Shown here piece after piece: positions 9,259 through 22,437 of a stretch of DNA of 64,000 bases; within the stretch, counting starts at the first letter, position 1; every line of letters begins with the position of its first letter. This stretch comes from a virus, in IMG/VR virus record IMGVR_UViG_3300035698_010625, positions 41,619 through 105,618 of that record, one strand, 5' to 3'. The notes below the pieces were generated by a model. That model had not been told where the DNA came from, did not search any database, and saw only the letters and a program-made list of their open reading frames with translations. The translations under genes and the position numbers were made by a program.

Positions 9259-9333
9259 GTGGCCGTGGCCGAATGGTTTAGGTGCCTGACTGTGAATCAG
9301 ATTATATGGGTTCAATTCCCATCGGTCACCCCA
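9259..9333 (+). tRNA. tRNA-His(GTG)
   Basis: Cloverleaf, loop CT-GTG-AA, C73, CCA; no encoded G-1. Confidence 0.93.
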
Positions 9334-9348
9334 ATGAAAATTTACAAT

Positions 9349-9425
9349 GCCCTTCTAGCTAAACTGGACAAGGCCCTCGGCTACGAACTGAGAGATTGAA
9401 GGTTCGAATCCTTCGGAGGGTACCA
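9349..9425 (+). tRNA. tRNA-Arg(ACG)
   Basis: Cloverleaf, CT-ACG-AA, TTCGAAT, CCA. Confidence 0.93.
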
Positions 9426-9441
9426 TATTAAGGAGTTTGTT

Positions 9442-9600
9442 ATGAGTAAATGGGATTACCCCAAGACTAAGAAGAATTCTGATGGAGCAAAACTGACTGC
9501 TGCTGAATTACGCGCACAAAGAAAAGCTCATCGGAAAGCAATTAAAGCTACTGCTCATACTGAACTCAAGACGAAGAAAAATAAAGATCAAATTAAGTAA
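9442..9600 (+). CDS. Small Lys-rich protein
   Basis: AAGGAG RBS; MSKWDYPKTKK... Confidence 0.55.
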   Translation: MSKWDYPKTKKNSDGAKLTAAELRAQRKAHRKAIKATAHTELKTKKNKDQIK

Positions 9601-9605
9601 CAATT

Positions 9606-9682
9606 GGGTGCTTCGTATAACGGCACATTATGTCGGACTCTTAATCCGAACGATCTGGGTTCGAATCCCAGGGTACCCACCA
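9606..9682 (+). tRNA. tRNA-Lys(CTT)
   Basis: TCGGA-CT-CTT-AA-TCCGA, CCA. Confidence 0.92.
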
Positions 9683-9697
9683 AACAAAGGTATTATT

Positions 9698-9970
9698 ATG
9701 GAATTCACTGCTGAACTTGCTAAACAAATAGTTGAAGAAGATCATGATGATTGGGAACAAGTTAATGAAGAATCTTCTAATTCTTCCCGATGGCATACTC
9801 ATTACAGTGGTGTTTATAAAAATACATTAACTGGAAAATACTATGAATTTATTTGGCAGCGTGGTTCTACTGAATATCAAGATGAAGGTACAGAATTTTA
9901 CACTGACCCAATAGAAGCTGTAGAAGTTATTGAAAAATCAGTAACTGTAATGCGCTGGGTTGCTGTTTAG
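9698..9970 (+). CDS. Conserved phage hypothetical protein
   Basis: SRWHTHYSGVYK...G.TEYQD motif; true ATG lies after the tRNA. Confidence 0.7.
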   Translation: MEFTAELAKQIVEEDHDDWEQVNEESSNSSRWHTHYSGVYKNTLTGKYYEFIWQRGSTEYQDEGTEFYTDPIEAVEVIEKSVTVMRWVAV

Positions 9971-10065
9971 TTTGTACGCGGACGGTACTGCTTGGCAGTC
10001 CACTTGAATATCTTGTGGGTCACTGCACAGTCCGGGTTGAAGAACCTTAAACTTAACTAACAATT

Positions 10066-10141
10066 GCCGGTGAAGCAATCAGGGTATTGCAACTCGTTGT
10101 CTGCGAGAGATAGGAGGGTTCGAGTCCCTTCATCGGCGCCA
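10066..10141 (+). tRNA. tRNA-Asp(GTC)
   Basis: Loop TT-GTC-TG, G73, CCA. Confidence 0.85.
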
Positions 10142-10147
10142 ATTTTT

Positions 10148-10223
10148 GGGGGATTAGCTCATCTGGGAGAGCGTCTGTTTTGCAAGCAGAAGGTGATCGG
10201 TTCGAGTCCGATATCTTCCACCA
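10148..10223 (+). tRNA. tRNA-Ala(TGC)
   Basis: G3:U70 pair, TT-TGC-AA, CCA. Confidence 0.95.
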
Positions 10224-10258
10224 TTTTACTAGAAAGATTCATATACTTTCTAGACATT

Positions 10259-10336
10259 CGTTCGGTAGCTCAGCCTGGTTAGAGCACCCGTCTGATACGC
10301 GGTAGGTCGAAGGTTCAACTCCTTCTCGAACGACCA
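10259..10336 (+). tRNA. tRNA-Ile(GAT)
   Basis: CT-GAT-AC loop, canonical D and T arms, CCA. Confidence 0.88.
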
Positions 10337-10341
10337 ATTTA

Positions 10342-10446
10342 AAGAGCTTAGGTGTAGAAACGAGAATGCACCTTTAAGAAAACCTTGTTGCTGGGCTACC
10401 CGATAAATCATCTTCTCAGATGTATGCAACACAAACTTCAGCTCTT
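10342..10446 (+). ncRNA. Orphan structured RNA
   Basis: Closing stem AAGAGCT/AGCTCTT enclosing AGGTGTA/TGCACCT and branched TGTTGC/GCAACA stems. Confidence 0.5.
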
Positions 10447-10450
10447 CCTT

Positions 10451-10581
10451 TTGTACTGTCATGCGGGGTCGCCTCGGTGACGAAAGTGCTAGCGGGTACC
10501 GTCTTAGTAACGGTTTCACGAGGTGCAGGACCTCGGGGGTTTTCAGTTTCCACAATCGGGCTAGCTAAAACTGAAGTACAA
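10451..10581 (+). ncRNA. Orphan structured RNA with twin GCTAGC loops
   Basis: TTGTAC/GTACAA closing stem, long CGGGGTC-GCCTC-GTGA rod, TTCAGTTT/AAACTGAA hairpin. Confidence 0.55.
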
Positions 10582-10593
10582 TTTTATTACAAT

Positions 10594-10670
10594 GCTACGT
10601 TCGTCTAATGGACTAGGACTCTGGGTTTTCACTTCAGATAATATCGGTTCGAATCCGATACGTAGTACCA
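10594..10670 (+). tRNA. tRNA-Glu(TTC)
   Basis: Glu-type D arm TCGTCTAA...AGGAC, TT-TTC-AC, CCA. Confidence 0.9.
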
Positions 10671-10678
10671 ATTTCAAT

Positions 10679-10754
10679 TCCTAGTTAGTATTCTTGGTGA
10701 GCACGGGTGACTGTTAATCACTTCAGGTAGGTTCGAATCCTACACTAGGAGCCA
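10679..10754 (+). tRNA. tRNA-Asn(GTT)
   Basis: GGTGA-CT-GTT-AA-TCACT, G73, CCA. Confidence 0.92.
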
Positions 10755-10761
10755 AATCAAT

Positions 10762-10836
10762 GAGAGTTTAGTTCAAGTTAGAACATCTGGCGCAATAGTC
10801 AGAAGATGCTGGTATCGAATCCAGTCCCTTTCACCG
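10762..10836 (+). ncRNA. tRNA-like RNA with 8-nt non-canonical anticodon loop
   Basis: D arm GTTC/GAAC, TCTGG-CGCAATAG-TCAGA, T-like arm GCTGG/CCAGT; weak acceptor, ends ACCG. Confidence 0.6.
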
Positions 10837-10842
10837 AATAAT

Positions 10843-10928
10843 GGATGTGATGTACCGGTGGTGGTATAGCGGGCTGTAACCCCGTGGCTCTTATGGGCGA
10901 GTAGGTTCGACTCCTTCCACATCCACCA
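10843..10928 (+). tRNA. tRNA-Tyr(GTA)
   Basis: CT-GTA-AC, long variable arm, CCA. Confidence 0.9.
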
Positions 10929-11016
10929 ATTTCGTTGGCAGTAAGGTCACGCATTGAGATTGACCTCCTAGTAATAGGTACCTGATGGGTAAATTAAAAA
11001 GTGCGATTTCAAATTC

Positions 11017-11094
11017 CGGTGATTAGCTCAGCCTGGTTAGAGCTCTCCGTTTGGGGCGGAGTTGCCAGAGGTTCGAATCCTCTATCACCGACCA
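11017..11094 (+). tRNA. tRNA-Pro(TGG)
   Basis: CTCCG-TT-TGG-GG-CGGAG, C1-G72, CCA. Confidence 0.95.
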
Positions 11095-11187
11095 ATAACT
11101 AATTATCTAATGTGCTTGCCGGCATATGCGGATGATTGCACGAACTTCTATTGATAACAAGCGGTAACTTGTAATCATAAGATGAGT

Positions 11188-11251
11188 TAATTAGTAGTTT
11201 AACGGTAGATCGCCTGGCTGGAAGATGCGGGTTCGAATCCTGTCTAATTAC
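11188..11251 (+). ncRNA. tRNA-like RNA with vestigial anticodon arm
   Basis: TAATTAG/CTAATTA acceptor, D loop AACGGT, GCGGG-TTCGAAT-CCTGT; about 10 nt in place of the anticodon arm; no CCA. Confidence 0.55.
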
Positions 11252-11267
11252 TTTCGTGATTTACAAC

Positions 11268-11342
11268 AGTTCCTTAACTCAGAGGCAGAGTATCGCTTTT
11301 ACACAGCGAAGGTCGAGATTTCGAAATTCTCAGGAACTACCA
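11268..11342 (+). tRNA. tRNA-Val(TAC)
   Basis: TCGCT-TT-TAC-AC-AGCGA, CCA. Confidence 0.9.
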
Positions 11343-11409
11343 GTAACTAATCAACAGCTCGATGGGAGTCTTGCTATTTGATTGCACAGCGTCTTACTCC
11401 CATAAGATT

Positions 11410-11478
11410 TATTGATAGTGTAATGGATGCACACTGGGGTTTAAACCTGGAAGTACGGTTCGATTCCGTGATTAATAA
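11410..11478 (+). ncRNA. Degenerate tRNA-like RNA with TTA at the anticodon position
   Basis: TATTGAT/ATTAATA acceptor, GTGT/GCAC D arm, CTGGG-GTTTAAA-CCTGG, TTCGATT T loop; no CCA. Confidence 0.5.
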
Positions 11479-11530
11479 CTTGGGCTGTGATTTACAAATC
11501 GCTTGAGCAACTGCTCGCGTACAATACAAT

Positions 11531-11618
11531 GGGAGTGTGGTGGAATTGGTATACACATTGGTCTTAGAAACCAACGACTGTAATGGTCACGCAGGTTCGA
11601 CTCCTGTCACTCCTACCA
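11531..11618 (+). tRNA. tRNA-Leu(TAG)
   Basis: Leu D arm GGTGGAATTGGTATACAC, CT-TAG-AA, variable arm, CCA. Confidence 0.95.
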
Positions 11619-11624
11619 ATCAAT

Positions 11625-11692
11625 GTTCGATTAGCATAATGCAATGCGGCAAGTACTTGTAGAAGAAAGCTCGAATCTTTCATCGAACTCCA
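11625..11692 (+). ncRNA. Anticodon-less tRNA mimic (68 nt, CCA end)
   Basis: GTTCGAT/ATCGAAC acceptor, GCAT/ATGC D arm, GCAAG-TA-CTTGT, GAAAG-CTCGAAT-CTTTC, T-CCA. Confidence 0.75.
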
Positions 11693-11701
11693 AATTTAAA
11701 C

Positions 11702-11775
11702 GCTCAATTAGTTCAATGGTAGAACAACGGCCCGGTAAGTCGTTAACGTAAGTTCGATTCTTACATTGAGCACCA
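11702..11775 (+). tRNA. tRNA-Thr(GGT), C33 variant
   Basis: ACGGC-CC-GGT-AA-GTCGT, CCA. Confidence 0.85.
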
Positions 11776-11781
11776 ATTAAT

Positions 11782-11858
11782 GCCCGGTTCGTCTAAATAT
11801 TAGGACCTCTGCCATATTTGAGCAGAAAATAAAAGTGAGATTCTTTTACCGGACACCA
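11782..11858 (+). ncRNA. tRNA mimic with 9-nt anticodon loop
   Basis: Glu-like D arm, TCTGC-CATATTTGA-GCAGA, AAAAG-TGAGATT-CTTTT, A-CCA. Confidence 0.7.
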
Positions 11859-11864
11859 AACAAT

Positions 11865-11937
11865 GCCAAGGTCGTCTAATAATCTAAGACCCTCTCGTGA
11901 TAGAGAGAAATGAGGTGTAAATCCCCCCGAGGCACCA
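11865..11937 (+). ncRNA. tRNA mimic with 6-nt anticodon loop
   Basis: Glu-like D arm, CTCTC-GTGATA-GAGAG, acceptor GCCAAGG/CCGAGGC, A-CCA. Confidence 0.65.
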
Positions 11938-11943
11938 AACAAT

Positions 11944-12019
11944 GCTGGAGTCGTCTAACGGCTAGGACTTTACATTCTCAGTGTAAACAATGCGAGTTCG
12001 AATCTCGTCTCCAGTACCA
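11944..12019 (+). tRNA. tRNA-Glu(CTC)
   Basis: TTACA-TT-CTC-AG-TGTAA, CCA. Confidence 0.9.
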
Positions 12020-12024
12020 AATCT

Positions 12025-12111
12025 GGATTGATCCGCTGGGTAGGCCGGCAGCACGGTTTGAACCCGTGGGTGACCGAAAGGTTAGGGGTTCGACTCCTCA
12101 TCTCTCCGCCA
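12025..12111 (+). tRNA. tRNA-Ser(TGA)
   Basis: CACGG-TT-TGA-AC-CCGTG, GAAA-capped variable arm, G73, CCA; acceptor mismatches at pairs 4-5. Confidence 0.82.
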
Positions 12112-12118
12112 ATTTTAT

Positions 12119-12194
12119 CCTTCGCTCGTCTAATGTTAAGACACCAAACCGTGGAGGTTTGGGGATAGAGGTTTGATTCCTTTGCTTAGGACCA
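12119..12194 (+). ncRNA. tRNA mimic with extended anticodon stem
   Basis: CCAAACC-GTGGA-GGTTTGG arm, AGAGG-TTTGATT-CCTTT, acceptor CCTTCGC/GCTTAGG, A-CCA. Confidence 0.68.
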
Positions 12195-12202
12195 ATTTTA
12201 AT

Positions 12203-12253
12203 GACTACTTCCTATACGTAGGTTAATAACTGAAAAGTTAAGAGTGGTCACCA
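12203..12253 (+). ncRNA. 51-nt mini-tRNA-like RNA
   Basis: 7-bp GACTACT/AGTGGTC + A + CCA; two tetraloop hairpins CCTA-TACG-TAGG and TAACT-GAAA-AGTTA. Confidence 0.6.
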
Positions 12254-12347
12254 AGTTATCCCACACTCATCGAATGGTACGGTAAACGTTAAGAAACGTT
12301 TCGTGGGGAGTTTATCAGAAAGCCGTGACAGATAGACAACTAACAAT

Positions 12348-12421
12348 AGCTGCATAGCATAGTGGTAATGCGGGGGTCTTTGAAACCTCTCAGTAAGGTT
12401 CGATTCCTTATGCGGCTGCCA
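12348..12421 (+). tRNA. tRNA-Gln(TTG)
   Basis: GGGGT-CT-TTG-AA-ACCTC, G73, CCA. Confidence 0.92.
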
Positions 12422-12425
12422 ATTT

Positions 12426-12497
12426 TGATGTGGATATAATCTATCCCTTGTGCGGGTGCCCCTAGTAATAGGTCAAGGCAGCAAACTGCTCACATCA
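12426..12497 (+). ncRNA. Orphan four-way-junction RNA
   Basis: TGATGTG/CACATCA closing stem; arms GATA/TATC, CTTG/CAAG (containing CCTA-GTAA-TAGG) and GCAG-CAAA-CTGC. Confidence 0.45.
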
Positions 12498-12507
12498 GAT
12501 TTAATAT

Positions 12508-12594
12508 GGAAGATTAACTAGACAGGGTTCTAGAGCTGTTTGCTAAACAGATGGTACCGCAAGGTATGAGTTTCGAATACTCAATTTTCCGCCA
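12508..12594 (+). tRNA. tRNA-Ser(GCT)
   Basis: TT-GCT-AA loop, GCAA-capped variable arm, G73, CCA. Confidence 0.88.
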
Positions 12595-12623
12595 AACATA
12601 AAGAAAAATTAAGTATTAACAAT

Positions 12624-12698
12624 GGGACTCAGGTGTAACTGGGTGCACGGCGGACTTTTAATCCGTAAGGACAGGGTTCAAGCCCTGGGGTCCCACCA
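12624..12698 (+). tRNA. tRNA-Lys(TTT)
   Basis: GCGGA-CT-TTT-AA-TCCGT, CCA. Confidence 0.92.
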
Positions 12699-12785
12699 AA
12701 TGTAAATGGAAATGCTTCGGCATTGTAAAACTCACCGAAAGGTTTCCACCCAAGTGTGGATATAAAGAAGTTCCGATTAGTCAAT

Positions 12786-12859
12786 GCGTCTAAGTACAAG
12801 GTGTATCCTCGGGTTTCCAACCCGTAGTGAGTGGGTTTCGATTACCCCTAGTCGCTCCA
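12786..12859 (+). tRNA. tRNA-Gly(TCC)
   Basis: CGGG-TT-TCC-AA-CCCG, GCG acceptor, U73, CCA; irregular D and T arms. Confidence 0.75.
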
Positions 12860-12864
12860 ACAAT

Positions 12865-12937
12865 AGTTATCTAGCTCAACTGGCAGAGCACTAGCTTCAT
12901 ACGTTAGGGAATCTCGGTTCAAATCCGAGGGTAACTA
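12865..12937 (+). tRNA. tRNA-Met/Ile2(CAT), elongator type
   Basis: CTAGC-TT-CAT-AC-GTTAG; CCA not encoded (ends CAA). Confidence 0.85.
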
Positions 12938-12943
12938 CAATCT

Positions 12944-12951
12944 TATAAATA
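12944..12951 (+). promoter_or_regulatory. T4-type late promoter
   Basis: TATAAATA upstream of the ORF at 12978. Confidence 0.7.
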
Positions 12952-12977
12952 CTCTTTTAATAAACGAGTATCAGAAA

Positions 12978-13232
12978 ATGCAAACTTTTAAAAGTTTCAC
13001 CGAAGGAAATGTCGTTAAATTTCCTAAGAAGAAAAAACAAACCCACGATGAAATTACTGGATTGCCAATTGATTCACGTCTTCCAGATACCCCAGACGAA
13101 TGGATGGTTGTATCAAAGGATGAGAGTGTAGCATATAGCACTTCACCAACTCGTCAAGAAGCACAGAAAAAACTTAAGACGTATATGATGAAGACAGGTA
13201 AGAGAGATCTTAAAGTCATCAAATTTGGCTAA
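12978..13232 (+). CDS. Putative internal head protein (capsid-targeting-like leader)
   Basis: MQTFKSFTE N-terminus; late promoter upstream. Confidence 0.6.
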   Translation: MQTFKSFTEGNVVKFPKKKKQTHDEITGLPIDSRLPDTPDEWMVVSKDESVAYSTSPTRQEAQKKLKTYMMKTGKRDLKVIKFG

Positions 13233-13238
13233 GATAAT

Positions 13239-13270
13239 CCTCGCCAAGAAGGTCTAAACCATATATAATG
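13239..13270 (+). promoter_or_regulatory. Sigma70-type promoter, copy 1
   Basis: TCGCCA-N17-TATAAT; 30/32 identical to 19805-19836. Confidence 0.7.
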
Positions 13271-13280
13271 ATATAACAAA

Positions 13281-13352
13281 GCGGGTATAGCTCAGTGGTA
13301 GAGCGGAACGTTGCCAACGTCCAGGTCGAGAGTTCGAATCTCTCTACCCGCT
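13281..13352 (+). tRNA. tRNA-Gly(GCC)
   Basis: GCGGGTA acceptor, TT-GCC-AA, U73; CCA not encoded. Confidence 0.92.
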
Positions 13353-13562
13353 CTAATTTAGGATTATATGATGAATTTGGGACTAACAAGTGATTGTGAG
13401 GCAGAAGCATATTTTGATAGCGCTGATACTTACATCAAACAATACAACGCTACTTATATGTTTGAGAATAGTTCTGCGAGAGTCCGAACTATCATTGCTG
13501 AATATTTTGCTAATCTAGATAATAAAACTATTTGGCTTTGGAAAACTAAGAGTGATTGAATC

Positions 13563-13781
13563 ATGCGCCTTATCATTTCGCGGACTAACAATGACAGCAC
13601 TTTGGACTTCGAAGTTCATGATGCACGTTGGGTTACTTTTAGTGATAAAATGAAAGCATTTGCTTGGACTCGTCCGGGTAATAAGCTTGGAATTTACTTC
13701 TCCGAGGAATATGTCAATCGCCGCTTTGTGAACATCTTTTGCATTAGCGCGCTTGAGAACATGCACTGGCAGGTTAAGTGA
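13563..13781 (+). CDS. Hypothetical protein
   Basis: ORF in a small coding block within the tRNA array. Confidence 0.5.
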   Translation: MRLIISRTNNDSTLDFEVHDARWVTFSDKMKAFAWTRPGNKLGIYFSEEYVNRRFVNIFCISALENMHWQVK

Positions 13782-13791
13782 GGATTACATT

Positions 13792-13983
13792 ATGTGGATT
13801 CGATTTGAAGAGAAACAACCCAAACAAGATAAAGACCTTTATTACTTCTTCGATGTAGTAGGTGTTCACTCAGGGCGCTATTACGGCGGTGATACATTTC
13901 AAGGCCGAAGAGGTTTTCTCAATGGTGACGTTACTCATTGGCAATATGATAAAGGGCAGGGAAAACCTGCTGAACCAAAATGA
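13792..13983 (+). CDS. DUF551-like small protein
   Basis: MWIRFEEKQP...VTHW.....P motif. Confidence 0.6.
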   Translation: MWIRFEEKQPKQDKDLYYFFDVVGVHSGRYYGGDTFQGRRGFLNGDVTHWQYDKGQGKPAEPK

Positions 13984-13988
13984 ATAAT

Positions 13989-14065
13989 GCAAGAGTGGCT
14001 CGACTGGTGAAGGCCGGCGTCTTATATGCGTCTATATGTGGGTTCGAATCCCGCCTCTTGTACCA
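13989..14065 (+). tRNA. tRNA-Ile(TAT)
   Basis: GGCGT-CT-TAT-AT-GCGTC, A73, CCA. Confidence 0.88.
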
Positions 14066-14073
14066 AAATATTT

Positions 14074-14150
14074 CAGGGTATAAGTCAGTCTGGTAGACAC
14101 CCCGGTTTGGAACTGGGAAGCCGTTGGTTCGAATCCAACTACCCTGACCA
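14074..14150 (+). tRNA. tRNA-Pro(TGG), second copy with A37
   Basis: CCCGG-TT-TGG-AA-CTGGG, C1-G72, CCA. Confidence 0.9.
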
Positions 14151-14167
14151 TTTAAAGAGAGTACATT

Positions 14168-14428
14168 ATGCTTACATTCAATATTAAAGATTTCTTTTGT
14201 TGGCATAGTATTCAAAAAGAAGAGTCATTTGAAGCTTTTCATGCAAGAGCAGAAGCACTGCATGAAACTTATCAACATTGGACTCCTGTAAATGAAATTG
14301 AAAGAACAAATAGAGCAGTATGTTTTGTATCTTTTATTAACAATCACCCAAAAATCGTAAATCCATATACTGGTAAAACAAAAAAACAATTTTCTTTAAC
14401 GGAATATCCTATATCTACCTTGTCTTAA
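14168..14428 (+). CDS. Hypothetical protein
   Basis: ORF with a GAGAG RBS. Confidence 0.5.
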   Translation: MLTFNIKDFFCWHSIQKEESFEAFHARAEALHETYQHWTPVNEIERTNRAVCFVSFINNHPKIVNPYTGKTKKQFSLTEYPISTLS

Positions 14429-14451
14429 AGGTTGTATAATGATTATTCAAT

Positions 14452-14527
14452 ACACGGTAAGCAATTATGGTTAATGCGCTGGCTTGAAGTCCCAGATAAC
14501 TAAGTTCGATTCTTAGACCGTGTACCA
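14452..14527 (+). tRNA. tRNA-Phe(GAA)
   Basis: CTGG-C-TT-GAA-GT-C-CCAG, CCA. Confidence 0.83.
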
Positions 14528-14550
14528 ATTTATTATGGAGTGACTGTGAT

Positions 14551-15252
14551 ATGTTTGCTGATTTTTGCACTGATCATTTCTCGACGAGTAACAATGCACA
14601 TTACAGAAATCCGCGAACTGTTGACCAAAATGTAATTGCTAATGAGACAATGCTATTTAGCGCATCTCCAGAATTTGCTACTGCAAATGGTGGCCCACTT
14701 ACTGCTTACTTTCTCTCCAAGCTTTTTGATGGTGGATTTGAAAGCATTGATACTCGAGGAATGCATTGGGTCATTGATACTCGCTCGCACATGCTGATGC
14801 CAGGTCAATTTCCTTCTATTCCAGGTTGGCATTGTGATGCTTGGGAGCGAGATCCAAAGACACAACAACCACTTTTATGGCAGCACCCACATGGTACCGC
14901 TATGCATTTTGTAATGACACTTGGTACTAATGATGATGGTGTATCACTTACAAAATTCATACTTCCTTTTGGTGTGCCGATTCGTGTATCTTACGATCCA
15001 TCCAAAGTTTGGGGTTCTGTAAACGAATCAATTGAACACCAAATTGAAGATCTCGTTATATCACCAGATAGAATTATTAGTGCGCCTTCAGGGACACTCA
15101 TTTCGTTTGGACAAAACATATTACATACGGCTAGTGTAGCTACCAGTAAAGGCTGGCGCTTCTTTGCTCGTATAAGTTTAATGACAAATCCACCACTCAA
15201 CAAAATTCGAAAACAGGTACAAGTTTACGCTGATTCAAATGTTGGTTGGTAA
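14551..15252 (+). CDS. 2OG-Fe(II) oxygenase-like protein
   Basis: PGWHCD (HxD), distal LH and R.F.R motifs. Confidence 0.7.
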   Translation: MFADFCTDHFSTSNNAHYRNPRTVDQNVIANETMLFSASPEFATANGGPLTAYFLSKLFDGGFESIDTRGMHWVIDTRSHMLMPGQFPSIPGWHCDAWERDPKTQQPLLWQHPHGTAMHFVMTLGTNDDGVSLTKFILPFGVPIRVSYDPSKVWGSVNESIEHQIEDLVISPDRIISAPSGTLISFGQNILHTASVATSKGWRFFARISLMTNPPLNKIRKQVQVYADSNVGW

Positions 15253-15338
15253 ATGAATTAAGGGAAACGTTGGTTCGAGTCCAACTCCTGCGCTGGTGCA
15301 AAGGATCGTAATTGATGGCCAAGACACCCTTACGTTAC
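15249..15338 (+). ncRNA. Circularly permuted tRNA-like RNA (YrlA/Y-RNA-like architecture)
   Basis: Order T arm (GTTGG-TTCGAGT-CCAAC), loop-closed acceptor, D-like arm, all closed by TAAGGG/CCCTTA. Confidence 0.6.
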
Positions 15339-15341
15339 AAT

Positions 15342-15415
15342 GTTGATATGGCAGAATGGTTATGCCGTGGCTTGCAAACCCACTTACTCTGGTTCGATTC
15401 CGGATATCAACTCCA
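15342..15415 (+). tRNA. tRNA-Cys(GCA)
   Basis: TT-GCA-AA, U73, CCA. Confidence 0.92.
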
Positions 15416-15667
15416 AGATAAGGCTTTAGCCGCAGCAGAGTAGTCAGGCATGACATAAAAGGTCGAAATGAAAAAGTTTAGCCGGCTCGACCAGCTTTAT
15501 TTCTGAGTTCAAAGGTGGTCCTGAGCACGATGGATATGCACCAATTGTAAAAAATGTCTGTGATGGTGATTATACCGAATTCTCAGTTTGTTTGGAATGT
15601 GGTACTCTGAAAGGTACTTTCCCGGTTGATGATCCTGTTTGGAATGATGAAGAAGAAGATTAACAAT

Positions 15668-15737
15668 GCGCCGCGCTCTGGGTAAGCAGTATGGTTTCCA
15701 ATGCCTCGCGTGTGGAGTTCGATTCTCTGGCGGCGTG
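15668..15737 (+). ncRNA. Degenerate tRNA-Gly(TCC)-like RNA
   Basis: GCGCCGC/GCGGCGT acceptor, TGGAG-TTCGATT-CTCTG, TT-TCC-AA in a poorly paired arm; no CCA. Confidence 0.5.
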
Positions 15738-15762
15738 CACCTGTAATAGATTAAAGAATAAT

Positions 15763-15838
15763 AAGAGTATAGTATAATGGCTCATTACCCCGGGCTCTGA
15801 ACTCGGTAATCTAGGTTCGAATCCTAGTACTCTTGCCA
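15763..15838 (+). tRNA. tRNA-Gln(CTG)
   Basis: CCGGG-CT-CTG-AA-CTCGG, G73, CCA. Confidence 0.93.
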
Positions 15839-15845
15839 AATATAC

Positions 15846-15920
15846 GCCTGCTAAGCATTAATGGTGATGCACTGGTTTTGTAATCCAGAGAAGAGGGATC
15901 GTTACCTTCAGTCGGCACCA
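15846..15920 (+). tRNA. tRNA-Thr(TGT)
   Basis: TT-TGT-AA, CCA; atypical T loop ATCGTTA. Confidence 0.83.
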
Positions 15921-15923
15921 AAT

Positions 15924-15997
15924 CGCGAGATGTTGAAATGGCATCCTGCTGGGCTCATAACCCTTCGTTGGCGGTTCAACTCCGTCTTTCGCTACCA
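15924..15997 (+). tRNA. Initiator tRNA-fMet(CAT)
   Basis: C1:U72 mismatch, GGG/CCC in the anticodon stem, CT-CAT-AA, CCA. Confidence 0.87.
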
Positions 15998-16110
15998 ACT
16001 TTGTGAGATCGTCAAGTGTAATTATGTTAAAGCCCGAGATGATGACATTACAAAATGTACGAATCGGTTAATCTTTAACTAGCACAAGGGACATCTCACA
16101 AACTTTTTTA

Positions 16111-16251
16111 TGTTGTAACTGCAAGGATAATGCAGGGTGGTTGGAGAGCTTGTGAGGGTGTACAACCTTTTATCCACAGGTATAAAGTTAGCTTTAACAA
16201 ATCGAGGCGCTTTATAAATCTCTAGTGAAGTTCGATTCTTCATTACAACAC
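16111..16251 (+). ncRNA. tRNA-like RNA with ~85-nt branched domain replacing the anticodon arm
   Basis: TGTTGTAA/TTACAACA acceptor, TGCA-AGGATAA-TGCA arm, TGAAG-TTCGATT-CTTCA T arm. Confidence 0.62.
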
Positions 16252-16258
16252 TTTCAAT

Positions 16259-16346
16259 GGGAGTATGGTGGAATTGGTATACACAGCAGACTTAAAATCT
16301 GCCGCCTGTAATGGGCTCGGGGGTTCGAATCCCTCTACTCCTACCA
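16259..16346 (+). tRNA. tRNA-Leu(TAA)
   Basis: GCAGA-CT-TAA-AA-TCTGC, Leu D arm, CCA. Confidence 0.95.
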
Positions 16347-16786
16347 AATTAAGGTAAATATGATGCAGGAAACAAGCACTAAAACTATAGCAGATAAAGA
16401 AGCATTGATTCTGTCTGCTGGTGAATGTTATCCAGATACATCTAGTTTTATACGAGATGAAGTTGTGAAAGACATTAATTTTAAGCTAGTTGATAAGATG
16501 TGGGGCAAATAACGAGTGTTGCTCATGCTCCAACCTTCATATACAATGGTGAATGTAAACCTTGTGTAAGTAGGTTGTACCGTAGCTATTTGAGATACAC
16601 TTATATAACTGCTGCACACATTAATGCACTGGTGTATGACATGGTAGTGGAATTAGATGATTTACTTATAGATGCTTCTGAATTTCACCCATATATGATG
16701 GCGATACCACAATTAGCTGAAGAAGAATATATTGAATTTAATCGAATTGCATTCAAACTTCGATTTGCATTTTAAAGATTAACAAT

Positions 16787-16856
16787 GCCCCGGGTGTTGG
16801 ATACACAGCAGAGGTTTCTACCCTCAGCCTTCTGGGTTCGACTCCTAGTCGGGGTA
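16787..16856 (+). tRNA. tRNA-Arg(TCT) with shortened D arm
   Basis: GAGG-TT-TCT-AC-CCTC, GCCCCGG/TCGGGGT acceptor, canonical T arm. Confidence 0.72.
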
Positions 16857-16874
16857 CACCATTTAAGGTTCATT

Positions 16875-17153
16875 ATGAAATATCTTCTTGAGTTGTATTG
16901 GATGTGGAGGGACCGCCAAAGAGCAGAAGCTGAACTCGATAAATTCATAGCTGTTAAAAAGTGGGATGCTAGCATTCGTTGGAATAATGACAAATCGGTT
17001 GAAAACATTCTTTATATTGGTCTTGAAAATGGCCGTGGTGAACGTAAAATACAAATTCATGATTATGGATTAACCCGTACTTATTCTAAGTCGAAGGCCC
17101 ATCTCATTTATACAAAGTACGTTTTGCCATGGCAGCATAAAATAAATGAATAA
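16875..17153 (+). CDS. Hypothetical protein
   Basis: ATG after the tRNA with an AAGG RBS. Confidence 0.55.
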   Translation: MKYLLELYWMWRDRQRAEAELDKFIAVKKWDASIRWNNDKSVENILYIGLENGRGERKIQIHDYGLTRTYSKSKAHLIYTKYVLPWQHKINE

Positions 17154-17259
17154 TAACCTTTATCTTAAGGTCCTATATTGATATAATATACTTATTGGAA
17201 CGCACCTATTTTGCTGTCAACGCAATGTTGGCTTTTTTGTAATTAAACGGGGATACATT

Positions 17260-18084
17260 ATGATTACGCGAAACAAATTGGCTGTTGCTATTCTTGCTGC
17301 AGTTTCCATTACTACCGCAGCACACGCATCTGAAGTTACTACAATCACCGCTGGCTCCAAGGGCGGTGCATACGCTACTTATGGCAACAATCTTGCAACT
17401 ATGCTCACCCAGAATGATTGGAAGAGTAAGGTTATTCGCAGTAAGGGTTCAATTCAGAATATTGCCCGTCTTGTAGATGGCTCAGCACAAATTGGTTTCA
17501 CCCAGGGCGATGCTTTGCAGCTCTCAAAGGCTGGTGGTAAGATTGATATTCTTGGAGCACTTGGAATGGAATGTGCTTTCATTGTTTACAGTAAGAAGGG
17601 TAAGGTCACTGACGAAGATCATCTTCAGAATGAGGGTGTGAAAATTGCTGTTGGTAAGAAAGGTACTGGTTCACAAGCAACGTGGTCTTACATGGTTCAG
17701 CTAGAACCTGCATACGGTAATGCATCTGCACAGTATACTGGCGGAGCTCGCGCACTTGGCGCACTCAAAGCAGGCACTGTTGACGCTGTTCTCTTTGTCA
17801 CCGATCCCACTAATCTGAGTCATAAGCTTATTCAAGCAGTAAATGGTGATCCAGACCTCGATTTTCTAGACGTTGATGACAGTGACTTGAATGATGATCT
17901 ACCTAATGGCACGCCTGTCTATGAATTCAAAGAAGTTGACACTGAAACGGGTGCTTTCGCGGATGACGTAGATACTATCTGTACGCCTTTGCTAGTAATT
18001 GCTAGTGCAGATGCTGACGAAGACATGCTTGATGATGCTGCAGGAATTATGCTAAGCAATCGCAATGCGGTGCTTGGTAAGTAA
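17260..18084 (+). CDS. TAXI-family TRAP transporter solute-binding protein
   Basis: Signal peptide (AHA|S), G.KGGAY, SKGSIQNI..L..G.AQIGFTQGD, G..GTGS, ALKAGTVDA motifs. Confidence 0.85.
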   Translation: MITRNKLAVAILAAVSITTAAHASEVTTITAGSKGGAYATYGNNLATMLTQNDWKSKVIRSKGSIQNIARLVDGSAQIGFTQGDALQLSKAGGKIDILGALGMECAFIVYSKKGKVTDEDHLQNEGVKIAVGKKGTGSQATWSYMVQLEPAYGNASAQYTGGARALGALKAGTVDAVLFVTDPTNLSHKLIQAVNGDPDLDFLDVDDSDLNDDLPNGTPVYEFKEVDTETGAFADDVDTICTPLLVIASADADEDMLDDAAGIMLSNRNAVLGK

Positions 18085-18107
18085 CAATGCAAAAGATAGT
18101 CGTTCCC

Positions 18108-18305
18108 AAGTTAGTACTTAATCGCTCTACGGAGAGGAAAGTCGGGACAAGCGGCATGATCGTGTGGGAGGAGTTAACTCCGCTTTACCACCGTGACATA
18201 GCTTGCAACACAAACAGGATTAGACAAATTGTGCATCAATGATATCCGGGTTGTGGCCAATAGACGAATGATAGCATAGAACAGGATCCCGCTTACGGAT
18301 TACTT
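18108..18305 (+). ncRNA. rnpB: Miniature RNase P RNA (catalytic domain only)
   Basis: CR-I GAGGAAAGTCGGG (18134) pairs with CR-V ACAGGATCCCGCTTAC (18281) to form P4 with the bulged U; CR-IV-like AGACGAATGAT. Confidence 0.85.
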
Positions 18306-18594
18306 ACTACTTACAAGGAGCAAATGATGAGCAAGGTATACCCTCACTCAAGCACTAAGCAACGCGAACGATACGTGAAACAAAACGCTATTAAAGGCGA
18401 ACGCTCTATCGGGCAAACTGATGCTTCAGTAGGCTGGTATGGACTTACAGTAAATTGGAAAGCTATTGTGCGTGGTGCACCGTGTTACATTACAACTAAC
18501 TAAAAGGAGCAAGATATGCGCTTGATGAATTTAGAGCACCTCCTTAAATTGTGATTTTTGGTAAAACACTAATTCACACTTAAGGAAACATCTA

Positions 18595-18972
18595 ATGAAA
18601 ATCACTTATCTCAAAATTAAAGTAAAGTCACTAGCAGCAGAGTCACGCATGATCCGCCAAGAGGAGTTGAAACTCAAACGTCGATACCAGGCGATTAAAC
18701 TGTTGGACAATCAGTATGACACTGCAGCAGAAGAGGGAGACATAAGGTCTACTCGTTTAGGTCTTTATGAACACCGTACAGATGATGTACGTCGAGAGTC
18801 GCGTGTAGCTAATATTGCTTACGGTCTACTTCGAGGAAGAGAGTATAGCAAAATTGAGCGAGGAGTTCGGGAGTTTAATCAACCGAAATGGACACGCGTT
18901 ACAAAGTTGATTGAGAAGTATTCAAACAGTGAGGAGCAGAAGGTTAAAGCTTTTCAACTGATTGAGCAGTAA
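18595..18972 (+). CDS. Conserved phage hypothetical protein
   Basis: LKIKVKSLAAESRMIR...R.ANIAYGLLRGREYSKIE motif common in large phages. Confidence 0.75.
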   Translation: MKITYLKIKVKSLAAESRMIRQEELKLKRRYQAIKLLDNQYDTAAEEGDIRSTRLGLYEHRTDDVRRESRVANIAYGLLRGREYSKIERGVREFNQPKWTRVTKLIEKYSNSEEQKVKAFQLIEQ

Positions 18973-18983
18973 ATATCATGACG

Positions 18984-19006
18984 GAGCGCTTCGGCGCTCT
19001 CGTTTT
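18984..19006 (+). terminator. UUCG hairpin terminator
   Basis: GAGCGC-TTCG-GCGCTC followed by T residues. Confidence 0.75.
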
Positions 19007-19075
19007 GGCTGACACGGTGACTACCTGGCTTTCAATCCAAAGGAGTTTAGGGTTCGATTCCCTTATCAGCCACCA
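19007..19075 (+). ncRNA. tRNA-like RNA with reduced D arm (TTC in loop)
   Basis: GGCTGA/TCAGCC acceptor, AGGG-TTCGATT-CCCT, A-CCA. Confidence 0.6.
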
Positions 19076-19220
19076 AATTTTAGGAGAGGCATTATGAGTA
19101 TATTTGCTTGGATTGTTTTTCCATTTTTATTCCCCGTGGTTGTCGCAATGTTTTGGGTGCTGACACATGTGGATCCATACACTGGTAAGGTTCATTGGAA
19201 TCTTACGTGGTAAACGATAT

Positions 19221-19510
19221 CATGTAGTAGTTTAAATGTTGGCATTATGAGGAAAGGTGAAGATTATTTGAAAGTAAAATTAAGTTAGTAGCAATTCTGT
19301 AGTGGTGATGTAACGAGACGTGTAGGTAAAAACGTGAGCCAAATGAAAGATTGGACAGGCATCATCATCGAGGGCGTTGCGAATTCTTCTTTTGAACCCT
19401 TTAATTAGTAACCTTTACTTACGTGTCACACGGAAAAACGCTAGGAACCCCCCCGCTTACGCGTCTCTTAATCCTGGATATCCACGGTTCAATACCGGGC
19501 TACATGGCCA
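19221..19510 (+). ncRNA. 290-nt ornate tRNA-like RNA with 194-nt D-loop insertion
   Basis: CATGTAG/CTACATG-G-CCA acceptor, split D arm, 27-nt anticodon loop, T arm, 13-bp long-range pairing 19315-19327/19455-19467. Confidence 0.75.
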
Positions 19511-19534
19511 ATTTCTTGAAACGGAGTTTATAAT

Positions 19535-19780
19535 ATGAATGATTATTTTAATGCGTTTATTATGATTTTGGTTATAGCGATAGTAACAAATGTTGGTTGG
19601 ATTATTAATTATGATGATCTTAAAACACTTCATGAAAAGGCGTTAAGTATTCATAAGATTGAAGTCATGCAACATAGACAAGCTATTTGTCGTAGTGCAA
19701 CAGCTGAACACGCAACTAATACTGCTACACTCTTCGAAGCAATCAATAAGCTCAATTCTGCTGCTAAGGCTGCAGAATAA
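19535..19780 (+). CDS. Small membrane-anchored protein
   Basis: N-terminal TM helix; GGAG RBS. Confidence 0.6.
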   Translation: MNDYFNAFIMILVIAIVTNVGWIINYDDLKTLHEKALSIHKIEVMQHRQAICRSATAEHATNTATLFEAINKLNSAAKAAE

Positions 19781-19804
19781 TTTACTTTAATGGCATAAGA
19801 TATA

Positions 19805-19836
19805 CCTTGCCAAGAAGGTCGAAACCATATATAATG
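19805..19836 (+). promoter_or_regulatory. Sigma70-type promoter, copy 2 (upstream of the large RNA)
   Basis: TTGCCA-N17-TATAAT. Confidence 0.75.
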
Positions 19837-19844
19837 GTACTATA

Positions 19845-20730
19845 ATCTGAACACAAACTAATAGATTGGGTCGCGTGGGATCCATAAGATAAGTAGCAGT
19901 AATGTTACGAAAGGCTATCTCATTTACGGATAGCGCCACTTTTATGAAGGTGGACATCTACGCAAGCCAAGCTCTTTACGGGTACCTCCGGGTGCTCTGG
20001 AAGATAAGTTGTGACCGACAAACACATCCAGGCCAACGGTGAGGATGATAGATTCCGCAAGAATCTCGGGTCAAGCAAAAGCAACGAACTTCAATGAGCA
20101 AAGGGTAGATTGAAAAGTTAAGCTTGCAGGTAAGGCTTTCAATCAATACGATAGGTGAAAGAAGATACAGCCTTCTGGAATCTAGAAATATTGCTAAGTA
20201 GCTCGCAAGGCGAAAGGTACGAGGTGGGTGGTATTTGGTAACTCAAAGGTTATTGAGCCACAGGCATTCGCTCATCTTAAAATGTAAATATGTAAACGGA
20301 ATAGGGGAATAGGTACACCCGCCCGGCCGCCAAAGCCAGGATCTGTTGGTTCGAATCCAACTTTCGTTATCAACTTTGTATTGATAACAAATCTTAAATG
20401 CAAAGACGAATGCCACCGTGAAGTGGAAATTGCTTAATCCTCAAACCCATAGGGTAATTGAGGTTCAGGATGCTCGCAAGGCGGATTGAATTAGTTGGAG
20501 TCACAGGTAAATTCTTAGCGGAGTTACACAGCCCAGCAAGGCTGACCGGTCGATGAATGCTGAAAAGCTCGCGGATAGAGGAATCGCTACCTCTTTAAAC
20601 AAAGCAGCAATGGTTGATTACTATGCCGCTCTTCGGAGGGTAAAGTGGAAAAGAGAAGAACCTAGCGGATCGCACCGTGTGGATAATTTCTCGAAGGATC
20701 AACTGCATATGAGTATATTCTCAACTCATC
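19845..20730 (+). ncRNA. GOLLD-like large ncRNA
   Basis: About 890 nt with no credible ORF; many GCAA/GTAA/TTCG tetraloop stems; motifs recalled from GOLLD (GGTCGCG near the 5' end, GCTCGCAAGGC twice, AAATGCAAAGACG, CTTAAT, GCCCAGCAAGGCTG, GTGGAAAAG, terminal TATTCTCA hairpin); lies in a phage tRNA cluster. Confidence 0.75.
20295..20369 (+). ncRNA. tRNA-like element (CCA/Trp-like loop) embedded in the GOLLD-like RNA
   Basis: AACGGAA/TTTCGTT acceptor, GGG/CCC D stem, CCCGGC-CGCCAAA-GCCAGG, GTTGG-TTCGAAT-CCAAC. Confidence 0.7.
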
Positions 20731-20939
20731 TGTTTACTTATGGCAGGTTGTACGTTCTCTGCCTTAAACGTACTGGCTTTCTGGGGAGGCTCAGATAACC
20801 GGGTAGTTCACCTAACTACCTGCCATAAGTAAATAGGAAGATAATATGAACATTGATAAAGTTGAACTTCAGAAGATCTTTCTTGAAGTTTTTACTAAAC
20901 ACCCAGAAGCTGCAAAGATTTTTCTAAAGGGTAATAACT

Positions 20940-21239
20940 ATGAGCACGACCCCTACAAGAAGTTTGAGAGTTGAAAGATCATATACAAATAAGTTTAACC
21001 AAGTAATTGAAGTTGGTGATGAAGTAGTATTTGTTGCAACTTCTTGGGGTGGTACTGATATTCGCCAAGGTGTTTATCTTGGATATTACCCACGCACTGG
21101 TTGGGATGGTCGCCCTGCACTTCATGCTGCTAGTGTATCATACATTGGTAAGGAGTGGGATGGAAGAAAATGGATTGACGATGCAGTACTTCATTCTGTT
21201 CTTGAACTCGGTCGTGTTTTCAAAATTGAGAAAGTATAA
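20940..21239 (+). CDS. Hypothetical protein (paralog of 21239)
   Basis: N.FNQVIEVGDEV...R.GVY.GY...G.VFKI. Confidence 0.7.
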   Translation: MSTTPTRSLRVERSYTNKFNQVIEVGDEVVFVATSWGGTDIRQGVYLGYYPRTGWDGRPALHAASVSYIGKEWDGRKWIDDAVLHSVLELGRVFKIEKV

Positions 21240-21556
21240 TGGCATTCCTCGAAGAGTCATTTGTCAATGAAATCGGGCAACGTATTGAAGTTGGGGATCG
21301 TGTAATAGCGGTCGCACATGGATACAATCTCAACTGCCGTCCTGGTATCTATGAAGGTTATCACAGTCATGGCGAACAATATTATACTATCTCACAACTT
21401 GTAGAAACTGCAGATGGTGGGTTTAAGAAAGATGAACGTGGTAATTATGTGAGATATACGAAAAAACATTATTACATTCGAATGTTACATCGCGTATTGT
21501 ACGATGAAGGTTGGCGTGGAATACTTCAGAATGGTAACATTTTCAAAATTGCATAA
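21239..21556 (+). CDS. Hypothetical protein (paralog of 20940)
   Basis: NEIGQRIEVGDRV...RPGIYEGY...GNIFKI. Confidence 0.7.
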   Translation: MAFLEESFVNEIGQRIEVGDRVIAVAHGYNLNCRPGIYEGYHSHGEQYYTISQLVETADGGFKKDERGNYVRYTKKHYYIRMLHRVLYDEGWRGILQNGNIFKIA

Positions 21557-21560
21557 CAAT

Positions 21561-21650
21561 GGCATTGTGGTGGAACTAAGGTATACACAGCGTCTTCAAA
21601 AGCCGCCGGTCTTTGAGACTATGAGGGTTCGACTCCCTCCGATGCTACCA
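21561..21650 (+). tRNA. tRNA-Leu(CAA)
   Basis: Leu D arm, TT-CAA-AA, variable arm, CCA. Confidence 0.9.
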
Positions 21651-21763: not shown

Positions 21764-22213
21764 ATGGGTATTATTAAACGTGATAGTATGCTTGGCCGTT
21801 GGATCTTTTCACCCAATACTTTTATCTATCAAGATGCTAAACTCTCTAGTGTTGAAACTATTAATTCTTGTCAAATTGTGCAAATGATTCTTTGGCGGTG
21901 CTTTGTAACTGTCGCAGTACTTTTTCTTGGATTTGTACTTGGTACACTAACCATCGGCTTGGTTACTGGGTTAGGCACTATGGTTGGTTTTTTCGACTTT
22001 GCTGCAATTTTCTTGTATGATTCATATTTTGGTGGTGCAGTAATGCTAGCTGGATTGATGTCAGTAATGGGATTAGTTATCGCTGGTTCATATTATTTTG
22101 AAGAATGGAAGATAGCCCGTCAGCACAAGCCCCGTGATGTTGACTCTGTTGTTGAAATCATGTATGATGGTTTCAAAAATAAGTTCTGCCCAATTTTTAA
22201 GGTAGTCGATTAA
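21764..22213 (+). CDS. Membrane protein
   Basis: 2-3 TM segments; K.KFCP C-terminus typical of phage membrane proteins. Confidence 0.7.
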   Translation: MGIIKRDSMLGRWIFSPNTFIYQDAKLSSVETINSCQIVQMILWRCFVTVAVLFLGFVLGTLTIGLVTGLGTMVGFFDFAAIFLYDSYFGGAVMLAGLMSVMGLVIAGSYYFEEWKIARQHKPRDVDSVVEIMYDGFKNKFCPIFKVVD

Positions 22214-22437
22214 ATGAAGTATTATGTAGATTCTATGAGACATTTGGTATGTGTGCCTTACAGTATATCTAATCTACATAAATGGCAGAAGTGTTAGAAA
22301 TTAATCGTTGTTGGTTTCACAAAAATCATTACGACGTACCTAAAAGAAGAATCAAAGAAATCCAAGCAAAAGCTACATTAGTATCTCCTCGAATTATTTT
22401 GAAGATTACTAAAGGTGAAGGATATGAACACCCTTGA
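22214..22437 (+). CDS. DUF4031-like protein, frameshifted at AAA 22280-22282
   Basis: Joined frames give RHLVCVPYSISNLHKMAEVLEINRCWFHKNHYDVP. Confidence 0.6.

Follow-up and report, generated by a model that had tools for sequence, protein, structure and literature searches.

The stretch of DNA analyzed here, called the window below, is 64,000 nucleotides long and comprises bases 41619-105618 of an IMG/VR virus record of 105.6 kb that is estimated to be 59% complete. The gene content is that of a T4-type myovirus, with a family B DNA polymerase, a UvsX-like recombinase, a DnaB-like helicase, and a ribonucleotide reductase. Among GenBank phages the cyanomyoviruses have the polymerases nearest to the DNA polymerase of the window, at no more than about 42% identity, and its best identity among the 5.8 billion proteins searched was 52%. 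Because of these low identities the phage looks, within the records that could be searched, like an orphan, distant T4-like lineage.

An RNA island extends from 9259 to 21650 on the + strand, which is also the strand of every other window feature described below, and it contains 29 tRNA genes called by ARAGORN, a GOLLD RNA, an RNase P-like RNA, and a number of weak tRNA-like genes. By the ARAGORN calls all 20 amino acids are served by tRNAs of the island, and CCA is encoded in most tRNA genes of this phage. The ARAGORN tRNA at 11410-11479 (Rfam 30 bits) has the anticodon TTA and would read the TAA stop. Weak tRNA-like genes that ARAGORN did not call, with Rfam scores of 29-37 bits, lie at 10762-10833, 11188-11251, 15846-15917, and 15924-15994; some of them end in CCA, and the gene at 11188 has the 5' motif TAGTAGTTTAA in common with the 290-nt RNA that is the subject of this report. 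Another tRNA-like gene, of 70 nt (19006-19075), has a 7-bp acceptor, a T arm, and CCA, is without a normal D arm, has an odd anticodon loop, and is preceded by a terminator-like hairpin (18983-19000); its sole match is a weak tRNA-Sec-like one at 18 bits. The GOLLD RNA (20221-20727) scores 151.6 bits against an Rfam gathering score of 150 bits, and the sole tRNA-Trp gene of the window (20295-20369) is embedded in its variable linker. At 18110-18311 there is a partial match to bacterial RNase P class A (38 bits, E 4e-9, under the gathering score), that is, a mini RNase P RNA of about 200 nt in which both ends of the class A model are matched and most of the middle is missing. It adjoins a gene (17260-18084) for a homologue of the TAXI-family TRAP transporter solute-binding protein (PF16868), which is 36-58% identical to proteins from metagenomes and bacterial genomes. 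A search pattern for relatives of the mini RNase P RNA, built on the P4 strands (CGGG/CCCG variant), led to two further phage tRNA islands (L119:12072-12271 and L120:1104-1259, both on the - strand). One of these two RNAs scores 61 bits (E 1.5e-16) and belongs to a complete 184-kb phage in which no match to the window DNA polymerase was found. Beyond the island, window positions 22212-22437 are 72-74% identical to two uncultured megaphages of about 640 kb, LR745206 and LR756502, and the counterparts (L121:6001-6151 and L122:6001-6152) lie inside the tRNA islands of those megaphages. The 150-nt megaphage match at 22212-22362 was considered as a conserved RNA and was rejected because its pattern of variation points to a small protein gene instead; compared to both megaphages, one base is missing near 22281 in the window copy of 22212-22437, and the frame is broken as a result.

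The 290-nt RNA itself is encoded at 19221-19510, where it fills a 321-nt gap between two small ORFs with ribosome-binding sites. The upstream ORF (19094-19213; 39 codons, hydrophobic) ends 7 nt before the RNA, and the downstream ORF (19535-19780; 81 codons, GGAG ribosome-binding site) starts 24 nt past the CCA. GOLLD lies 700 nt downstream. Most tRNA genes of the island are directly preceded by a leader, (A/T)CAAT or AATAAT, that ends at -1; the leader of the 290-nt RNA is GATAT, with U at -1 (19220), and neither of the two leader types stands before GOLLD or the RNase P-like RNA. A first-pass annotation made from the letters alone had described this RNA as a tRNA scaffold with an acceptor, a D stem, an anticodon stem closing a 27-nt loop, a T arm, and CCA, and all of these elements were found where it had placed them. 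The acceptor 5' strand CATGTAG (19221-19227) forms seven Watson-Crick pairs with CTACATG (19500-19506), each with a pair probability of 0.99-1.0. The following segment, 19228-19239, reads as U8 and A9, the D stem 5' strand GTTT (19230-19233), and the 5' part of the D loop from A14 (19234), a register that was tested with shuffles as described below. The 3' part of the D loop and what follows it (19429-19440) bring G18 and G19 (19432-19433) and A21 (19435), with GG-N-A in the exact tRNA register, the D stem 3' strand AAAC (19436-19439), and G26 (19440). The equivalent of the anticodon arm (19441-19477) is CTAGG (19441-19445) paired with CCTGG (19473-19477), with one G-U, and it closes the 27-nt loop at 19446-19472. 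This loop holds a run of seven C residues (19448-19454), for which no G7 partner was found within the window, and then the segment GCTTACGCGTCTC (19455-19467). The 5-nt variable region ATATC and the T arm CACGG-TTCAATA-CCGGG occupy 19478-19499 and supply G53-C61 and T54 T55 C56 A57 A58; the inner three pairs of the T stem have probabilities of 0.97-1.0, and there is one A.G mismatch at 50:64. The 3' end (19500-19510) reads as the acceptor 3' strand, the discriminator G73 (19507), and an encoded CCA (19508-19510). The insertion lies between positions 16/17 and G18, and this is the site at which D loops vary in length. Seven of the eight classical tertiary contacts are kept (U8-A14, A9-A23-U12, G26-A44, G18-55, G19-56, T54-A58, and G53-C61), the sole non-standard pair being 15-48 (A-C).

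The frame was tested by holding the acceptor and the T arm fixed and shuffling the interior 200,000 times. The D stem, nucleotide 26, and the anticodon stem came out in register in 8% of the shuffles, the same register with no more than one G-U in 1.3%, and this together with GG-N-A in 0.018%; the full frame including U8 and A14 was obtained in 2 of the 200,000 (0.001%). These shuffle statistics, together with the tertiary nucleotides, the setting in a gap between ORFs, and the CCA encoded at the 3' end, make the tRNA ancestry and frame of 19221-19510 secure, and the earlier description of a tRNA-derived frame with a large D-loop insertion and an enlarged anticodon loop is supported. No close parent was found among the phage's own tRNAs. 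With the canonical tRNA (RF00005) the RNA shares the 7-bp acceptor, U8, the 4-bp D stem, A14, G18G19, A21, G26, the 5-bp anticodon stem, the 5-nt variable loop, the TTCAATA T arm, the discriminator, and CCA. It differs from it in having about 190 nt in the D loop and a 27-nt loop without the U33-NNN-R37 context. Thus, the cloverleaf register and the conserved tertiary nucleotides of a tRNA are there, whereas the 7-nt anticodon loop with U33 and purine 37 and a tRNA-like model score are not: RF00005 has no match at the locus at E<=5, and ARAGORN does not call the locus as a tRNA even when the rod is removed in silico. Since the anticodon loop has 27 nt, the predicted RNA cannot read codons. To our knowledge, an acceptor with C1-G72, U3-A70, and G73 does not amount to a recognized anticodon-independent identity set, and for this reason we expect that the RNA stays uncharged.

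One explanation for an intact tRNA core with two enlarged loops is that this is an intron-containing tRNA gene from which a working tRNA emerges once the inserts are removed. Phage tRNA genes with unexplained introns have been reported in Lak megaphages, in which conserved inserts that fit no known intron class were termed "enigmatic introns" (Devoto et al. 2019, PMC6784885); those genes were predicted with the eukaryote (intron-aware) settings of tRNAscan-SE and give a classifiable tRNA after removal of the insert (PMC6784885). The 290-nt RNA is unlike them in that its insert is in the D loop and its anticodon loop is not restorable, because the 27-nt loop, as read from the sequence, cannot be split so as to leave U33 in a loop of 7 nt. 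A working tRNA would take two separate excisions, no intron-containing tRNA is called by ARAGORN when the rod is deleted in silico, and the island already has tRNAs for all 20 amino acids. Splicing to a working tRNA is unlikely on these grounds, and since the rod base is also without a bulge-helix-bulge motif and no group I intron or other ribozyme (P3-P8 core models) matches at E<=10, we regard the intron explanation as very improbable.

Other known RNA classes did not account for the locus either. Rfam 15 gave no match at 19221-19510 at the gathering threshold or at E<=10, in a scan at E<=10, including 6S, that covered 18700-20300; the first-pass annotation had proposed this check. It had also argued that the RNA is not a tmRNA, and this holds, because position 3:70 is U3-A70 and not G3.U70, there is no plausible tag reading frame, and RF00023 has no match. 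The RNA resembles tmRNA in having a tRNA-like acceptor and T arm with CCA around a large structured insert, and is unlike it in having D and anticodon stems. A phage-carried tmRNA is present at L119:6-363. YrlA or a Y RNA-like RNA (RF02553) was rejected as well, for it has no match and the ends of the 290-nt RNA form an acceptor stem, whereas in YrlA the tRNA-like module is internal and the Ro-binding stem is made from the ends. With GOLLD and ROOL the RNA has in common that these are large structured RNAs in or beside phage tRNA islands; there is no similarity in sequence or structure, and here a tRNA encloses the domain whereas GOLLD encloses a tRNA.

In the minimum-free-energy (MFE) fold, the insert forms a rod, an imperfect long hairpin of about 189 nt (19240-19428) that is interrupted by a central bubble and has an apical region of 47 nt (19312-19358). 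All four of the rod helices claimed earlier appear in this fold, as TGGCAT/GTGTCA, AAGGT/ACCTT, GCAA/TTGC, and GTGGTGATGT/GCATCATCAT. The rod alone is not more stable than shuffles (z -0.6 to -0.8), and neither is the whole 290-nt fold compared to dinucleotide shuffles (z -0.09); the MFE is -68.9 kcal/mol for the + strand vs -53.6 kcal/mol for the - strand. A coding insert was rejected since the longest peptide in it has just 13 amino acids. The long imperfect rod with a bubble and the segment TTGAACC had suggested a 6S-like decoy for RNA polymerase on a tRNA handle. This idea found no support: 6S RNA (RF00013), which is a closed rod with a conserved central bubble, has no match at E<=10, the bubble and the rod are not distinctive statistically or thermodynamically, and TTGAACC is largely paired in the MFE fold and lies outside the bubble. 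We consider a 6S-like role to have next to no probability.

The rod tip, GAGACGTGTAGGT (19315-19327), is complementary to 19455-19467 in the anticodon loop over 13 bp, of which 10 are Watson-Crick and 3 are G-U, exactly as had been claimed, and the energy of this duplex is -21.5 kcal/mol. Read on the + strand, the three positions that are not Watson-Crick are all G-U; on the - strand they would be A-C. This speaks for the helix, as does the better folding of the + strand, by 15 kcal/mol, compared to its complement. When the frame is given and the unpaired bases are shuffled, a tip-loop helix of this length is reached in 1 of 1000 shuffles, and tip-loop complementarity beyond chance is supported to that extent; of 300 dinucleotide shuffles of the 290 nt, 23 (7.7%) contain a helix of at least 13 bp at some place. 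The tip has a competing partner, TTTACTTACGTGTC (19414-19427), which shares bases with the 3' strand at the base of the rod and pairs with 19317-19330 over 14 bp (3 G-U, -15.5 kcal/mol), and CGTGTAG within the tip is also able to pair with the acceptor 3' strand. A partly palindromic ACG(T/C)G core is common to the tip, its two partners, and another copy nearby, and because of this core the mutual complementarity is inflated. An alternative nested fold that contains the 13-bp helix has an energy of -67.1 vs -68.9 kcal/mol for the cloverleaf with the rod and loses the D and anticodon stems; the ensemble probability of the 13-bp helix is 19%. The coexistence of these two folds, the 14-bp alternative partner, and the pairing of CGTGTAG could mean that the RNA has two states, in which the tip changes its partner among the anticodon loop, the base of the rod (19414-19427), and possibly the acceptor 3' strand, so that the molecule toggles between a tRNA-like and a non-tRNA form, for example as a gate for processing. 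However, near-degenerate folds are common in AU-rich sequences of 290 nt and the common ACG(T/C)G core explains why the tip has multiple partners. A two-state RNA is therefore, in our estimate, quite improbable.

Relatives of the RNA were sought in several ways. No homologue was found by blastn of the 290 nt and of the 3' 82 nt against 50,697 phage records, by searches with neighbor proteins in IMG/VR, or by an exact 22-mer search of viral, metagenome, and genome collections. Alignment of the TAXI protein against IMG/VR and JGI metagenomes gave 32 loci, none of them syntenic, and alignment of the DNA polymerase gave 80 loci, all at no more than 51% identity and without an RNA homologue. A three-block core pattern had 4 matches, none of which had a match to model R1 or a tRNA-like fold, and model R1 itself, when applied to loci that amount to about 1.1 Mb, to 22 phage records, and to the 105-kb record of this phage, found no homologue. 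There being one sequence and no homologue, there is no covariation for the rod or for the tip-loop helix. A sequence-independent descriptor, a T arm and a 7-bp acceptor spanning 100-450 nt, was run on both strands of about 3 Mb and found just the 19221-19510 locus and one different element. The latter is a 211-nt tRNA-like gene (L119:9302-9512, - strand) whose 7-bp acceptor is perfect, whose D arm is normal (GTTT-AATTGGTA-GAAC), and which also has a T arm and CCA. Its insertion, of about 130 nt, is on the anticodon side, and no Rfam family matches it. The tRNA island around it also has a mini RNase P, and the phage showed no match to the window DNA polymerase.

These results bear on the main rival to the explanation that we favor, namely, that the locus is a disrupted tRNA gene. 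Such a pseudogene would be a former tRNA gene of a fast-changing island that received a DNA insertion of about 190 bp in the D loop and about 20 extra bases in the anticodon loop, and the rod and the helix would be what any sequence this long offers. The rod and whole-fold energies, which equal those of shuffles, the 7.7% of shuffles with a helix of at least 13 bp, and the failure of the above searches to find a homologue fit with this, and so do the weak tRNA-like genes of the island that ARAGORN does not call (10762, 11188, 15846, 15924, and 19006). In addition, T4-type tRNA regions are known to be targeted by homing endonucleases such as SegB (PMC2330249), which is annotated in T4. On the other hand, the four stems are intact but for one mismatch, and the tertiary nucleotides and CCA have been kept despite two disruptions. 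The insertion is at the single D-loop site that tolerates extra bases, and the two inserted segments are complementary to each other over 13 bp, which with the frame given was seen in 1 of 1000 shuffles, with G-U pairs on the coding strand only. The insert also has no second copy in the genome, which makes it unlike a repeated mobile element. Overall, we consider a pseudogene unlikely.

The explanation that we favor draws on a precedent in T4. T4 RNA C and RNA D became known some fifty years ago, and neither has been assigned a function since. RNA C, also called species 1 RNA or rnaC, is 139 nt long (NC_000866 70908-71046; L084:2909-3047, - strand). The T4 tRNA cluster encodes two stable RNAs of unknown function (PMC3014915), and both of them, RNA C included, are late RNAs that have been validated by Northern analysis (PMC9697503). 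Homologues of rnaC were confined to Tevenvirinae by blastn, and an alignment of T4 rnaC with the homologues of four other Tevenvirinae genera (5 sequences) gave a consensus fold with an acceptor-like stem and a canonical T arm, in which a long hairpin takes the D position and the anticodon-like arm has 10 bp and a loop of 6 nt. Compensatory changes were found in 19 of the 46 predicted pairs, and T4 rnaC itself has a z of -4.6 vs shuffles. The apical tip, TTGACG, and the anticodon-like loop, CGTCAA, are exact complements and both are invariant in the 5 genera; the stems of the hairpin covary and are wholly different between genera despite the invariant TTGACG. The two arms that carry these complementary loops are about 27 and 10 bp long. 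We know of no earlier description of this complement in open-access text.

The 290-nt RNA is like RNA C in several ways. The gene of each lies among the tRNA genes of a T4-type phage, and each RNA combines an acceptor-like stem and a canonical T arm with a long hairpin that stands in place of the D arm. Each also has a non-decoding anticodon-like arm with a loop to which the tip of the hairpin is complementary. The first-pass statement that no such RNA class could be recognized must be revised, because RNA C shows the same layout, including the tip-to-loop complement. There are also clear differences. RNA C has 139 nt against 290 nt and a complement of 6 bp against 13 bp; its acceptor is degenerate (two U.U) and it has no 8/9 linker and no G18G19 context, whereas the tRNA core of the 290-nt RNA is near-perfect; and the rod of RNA C is very stable (z -4.6) whereas that of the 290-nt RNA is not. 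The layout of RNA C is thus found in the 290-nt RNA, and homology in sequence or structure is not. A covariance model of rnaC (5 sequences, 46 pairs) had no match at the locus, its best match in the window being a tRNA at E 0.47. For this reason the locus is kept out of the rnaC family, and judging from the shared layout, it is the same kind of design as rnaC and not a family member.

The most likely explanation for the locus, to which we give about an even chance, is that 19221-19510 encodes a non-decoding, tRNA-derived stable RNA of a design like that of T4 RNA C. The tRNA frame, the site of insertion in the D loop, CCA, the setting, the tip-loop helix, and the precedent of T4 rnaC argue for it. 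Against it are the single sequence, the shuffle-like stability, the 14-bp rival partner, the nested fold, and the ACG(T/C)G core, as well as the rnaC model that has no match and the leader that has no CAAT motif. From this we infer the expression, processing, rod fold, and function of the RNA as follows. It would be transcribed on the + strand together with the rest of the RNA island. RNase P, that of the host or one with the phage mini RNase P RNA at 18110-18311, would cut the 5' end, and the 3' end would be trimmed to the encoded CCA and could be a substrate for CCA repair. The tRNA core would provide the processing signals, an L-shaped fold, and stability. The arm of about 190 nt would exit the D loop at its variable, solvent-facing corner, and its tip would pair with the enlarged anticodon loop either within one molecule, with a bend at the bubble, or between molecules. 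Bent docking within the molecule would result in a roughly triangular shape, and otherwise dimers or chains would form. As a best guess, the RNA may, during infection, be a decoy or binding partner with the shape of a tRNA.

Whether the pairing is within or between molecules is a question of geometry. The rod has about 49 pairs in the MFE fold and would be about 135 Å long, which is about twice the distance from the elbow to the anticodon of a tRNA, and because of this length docking inside one molecule needs a bend at the central bubble. If the complement acts instead between molecules, then dimers or larger assemblies would form, as by the kissing contacts in GOLLD and ROOL cages. The need for a sharp bend speaks for pairing in trans, as do the complementary loops of T4 rnaC, which sit on arms of unequal length, and the GOLLD RNA nearby, since GOLLD/ROOL-type RNAs form multimers (bioRxiv 10.1101/2024.12.08.627333). 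This proposal is one of geometry, and the central bubble could supply the bend; pairing between molecules is, in our estimate, rather unlikely.

A further step would be to regard T4 RNA C and the 290-nt RNA as one unrecognized class of phage RNA design, with a tRNA body, an arm from the D region, and a tip pairing with the enlarged anticodon loop, that makes a closed triangle or a kissing-loop multimer, acts as a tRNA-shaped decoy or assembly unit in infection, and is matured by RNase P, here possibly with a phage-encoded mini RNase P. We think this generalization unlikely. That a much larger and more tRNA-like RNA occurs in a phage whose DNA polymerase has only about 42% identity to those of cultured phages suggests that what selection keeps is the design, in which a long arm leaves a tRNA handle at the D position and pairs through its tip with the loop on the anticodon side. 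The RNA would also be a natural tRNA scaffold with a large RNA domain displayed from its D loop, in contrast to engineered scaffolds, which use the anticodon stem. With their tRNAs, mini RNase P, GOLLD, and tRNA-shaped RNAs that do not decode, phage tRNA islands may be seen as RNA workshops.
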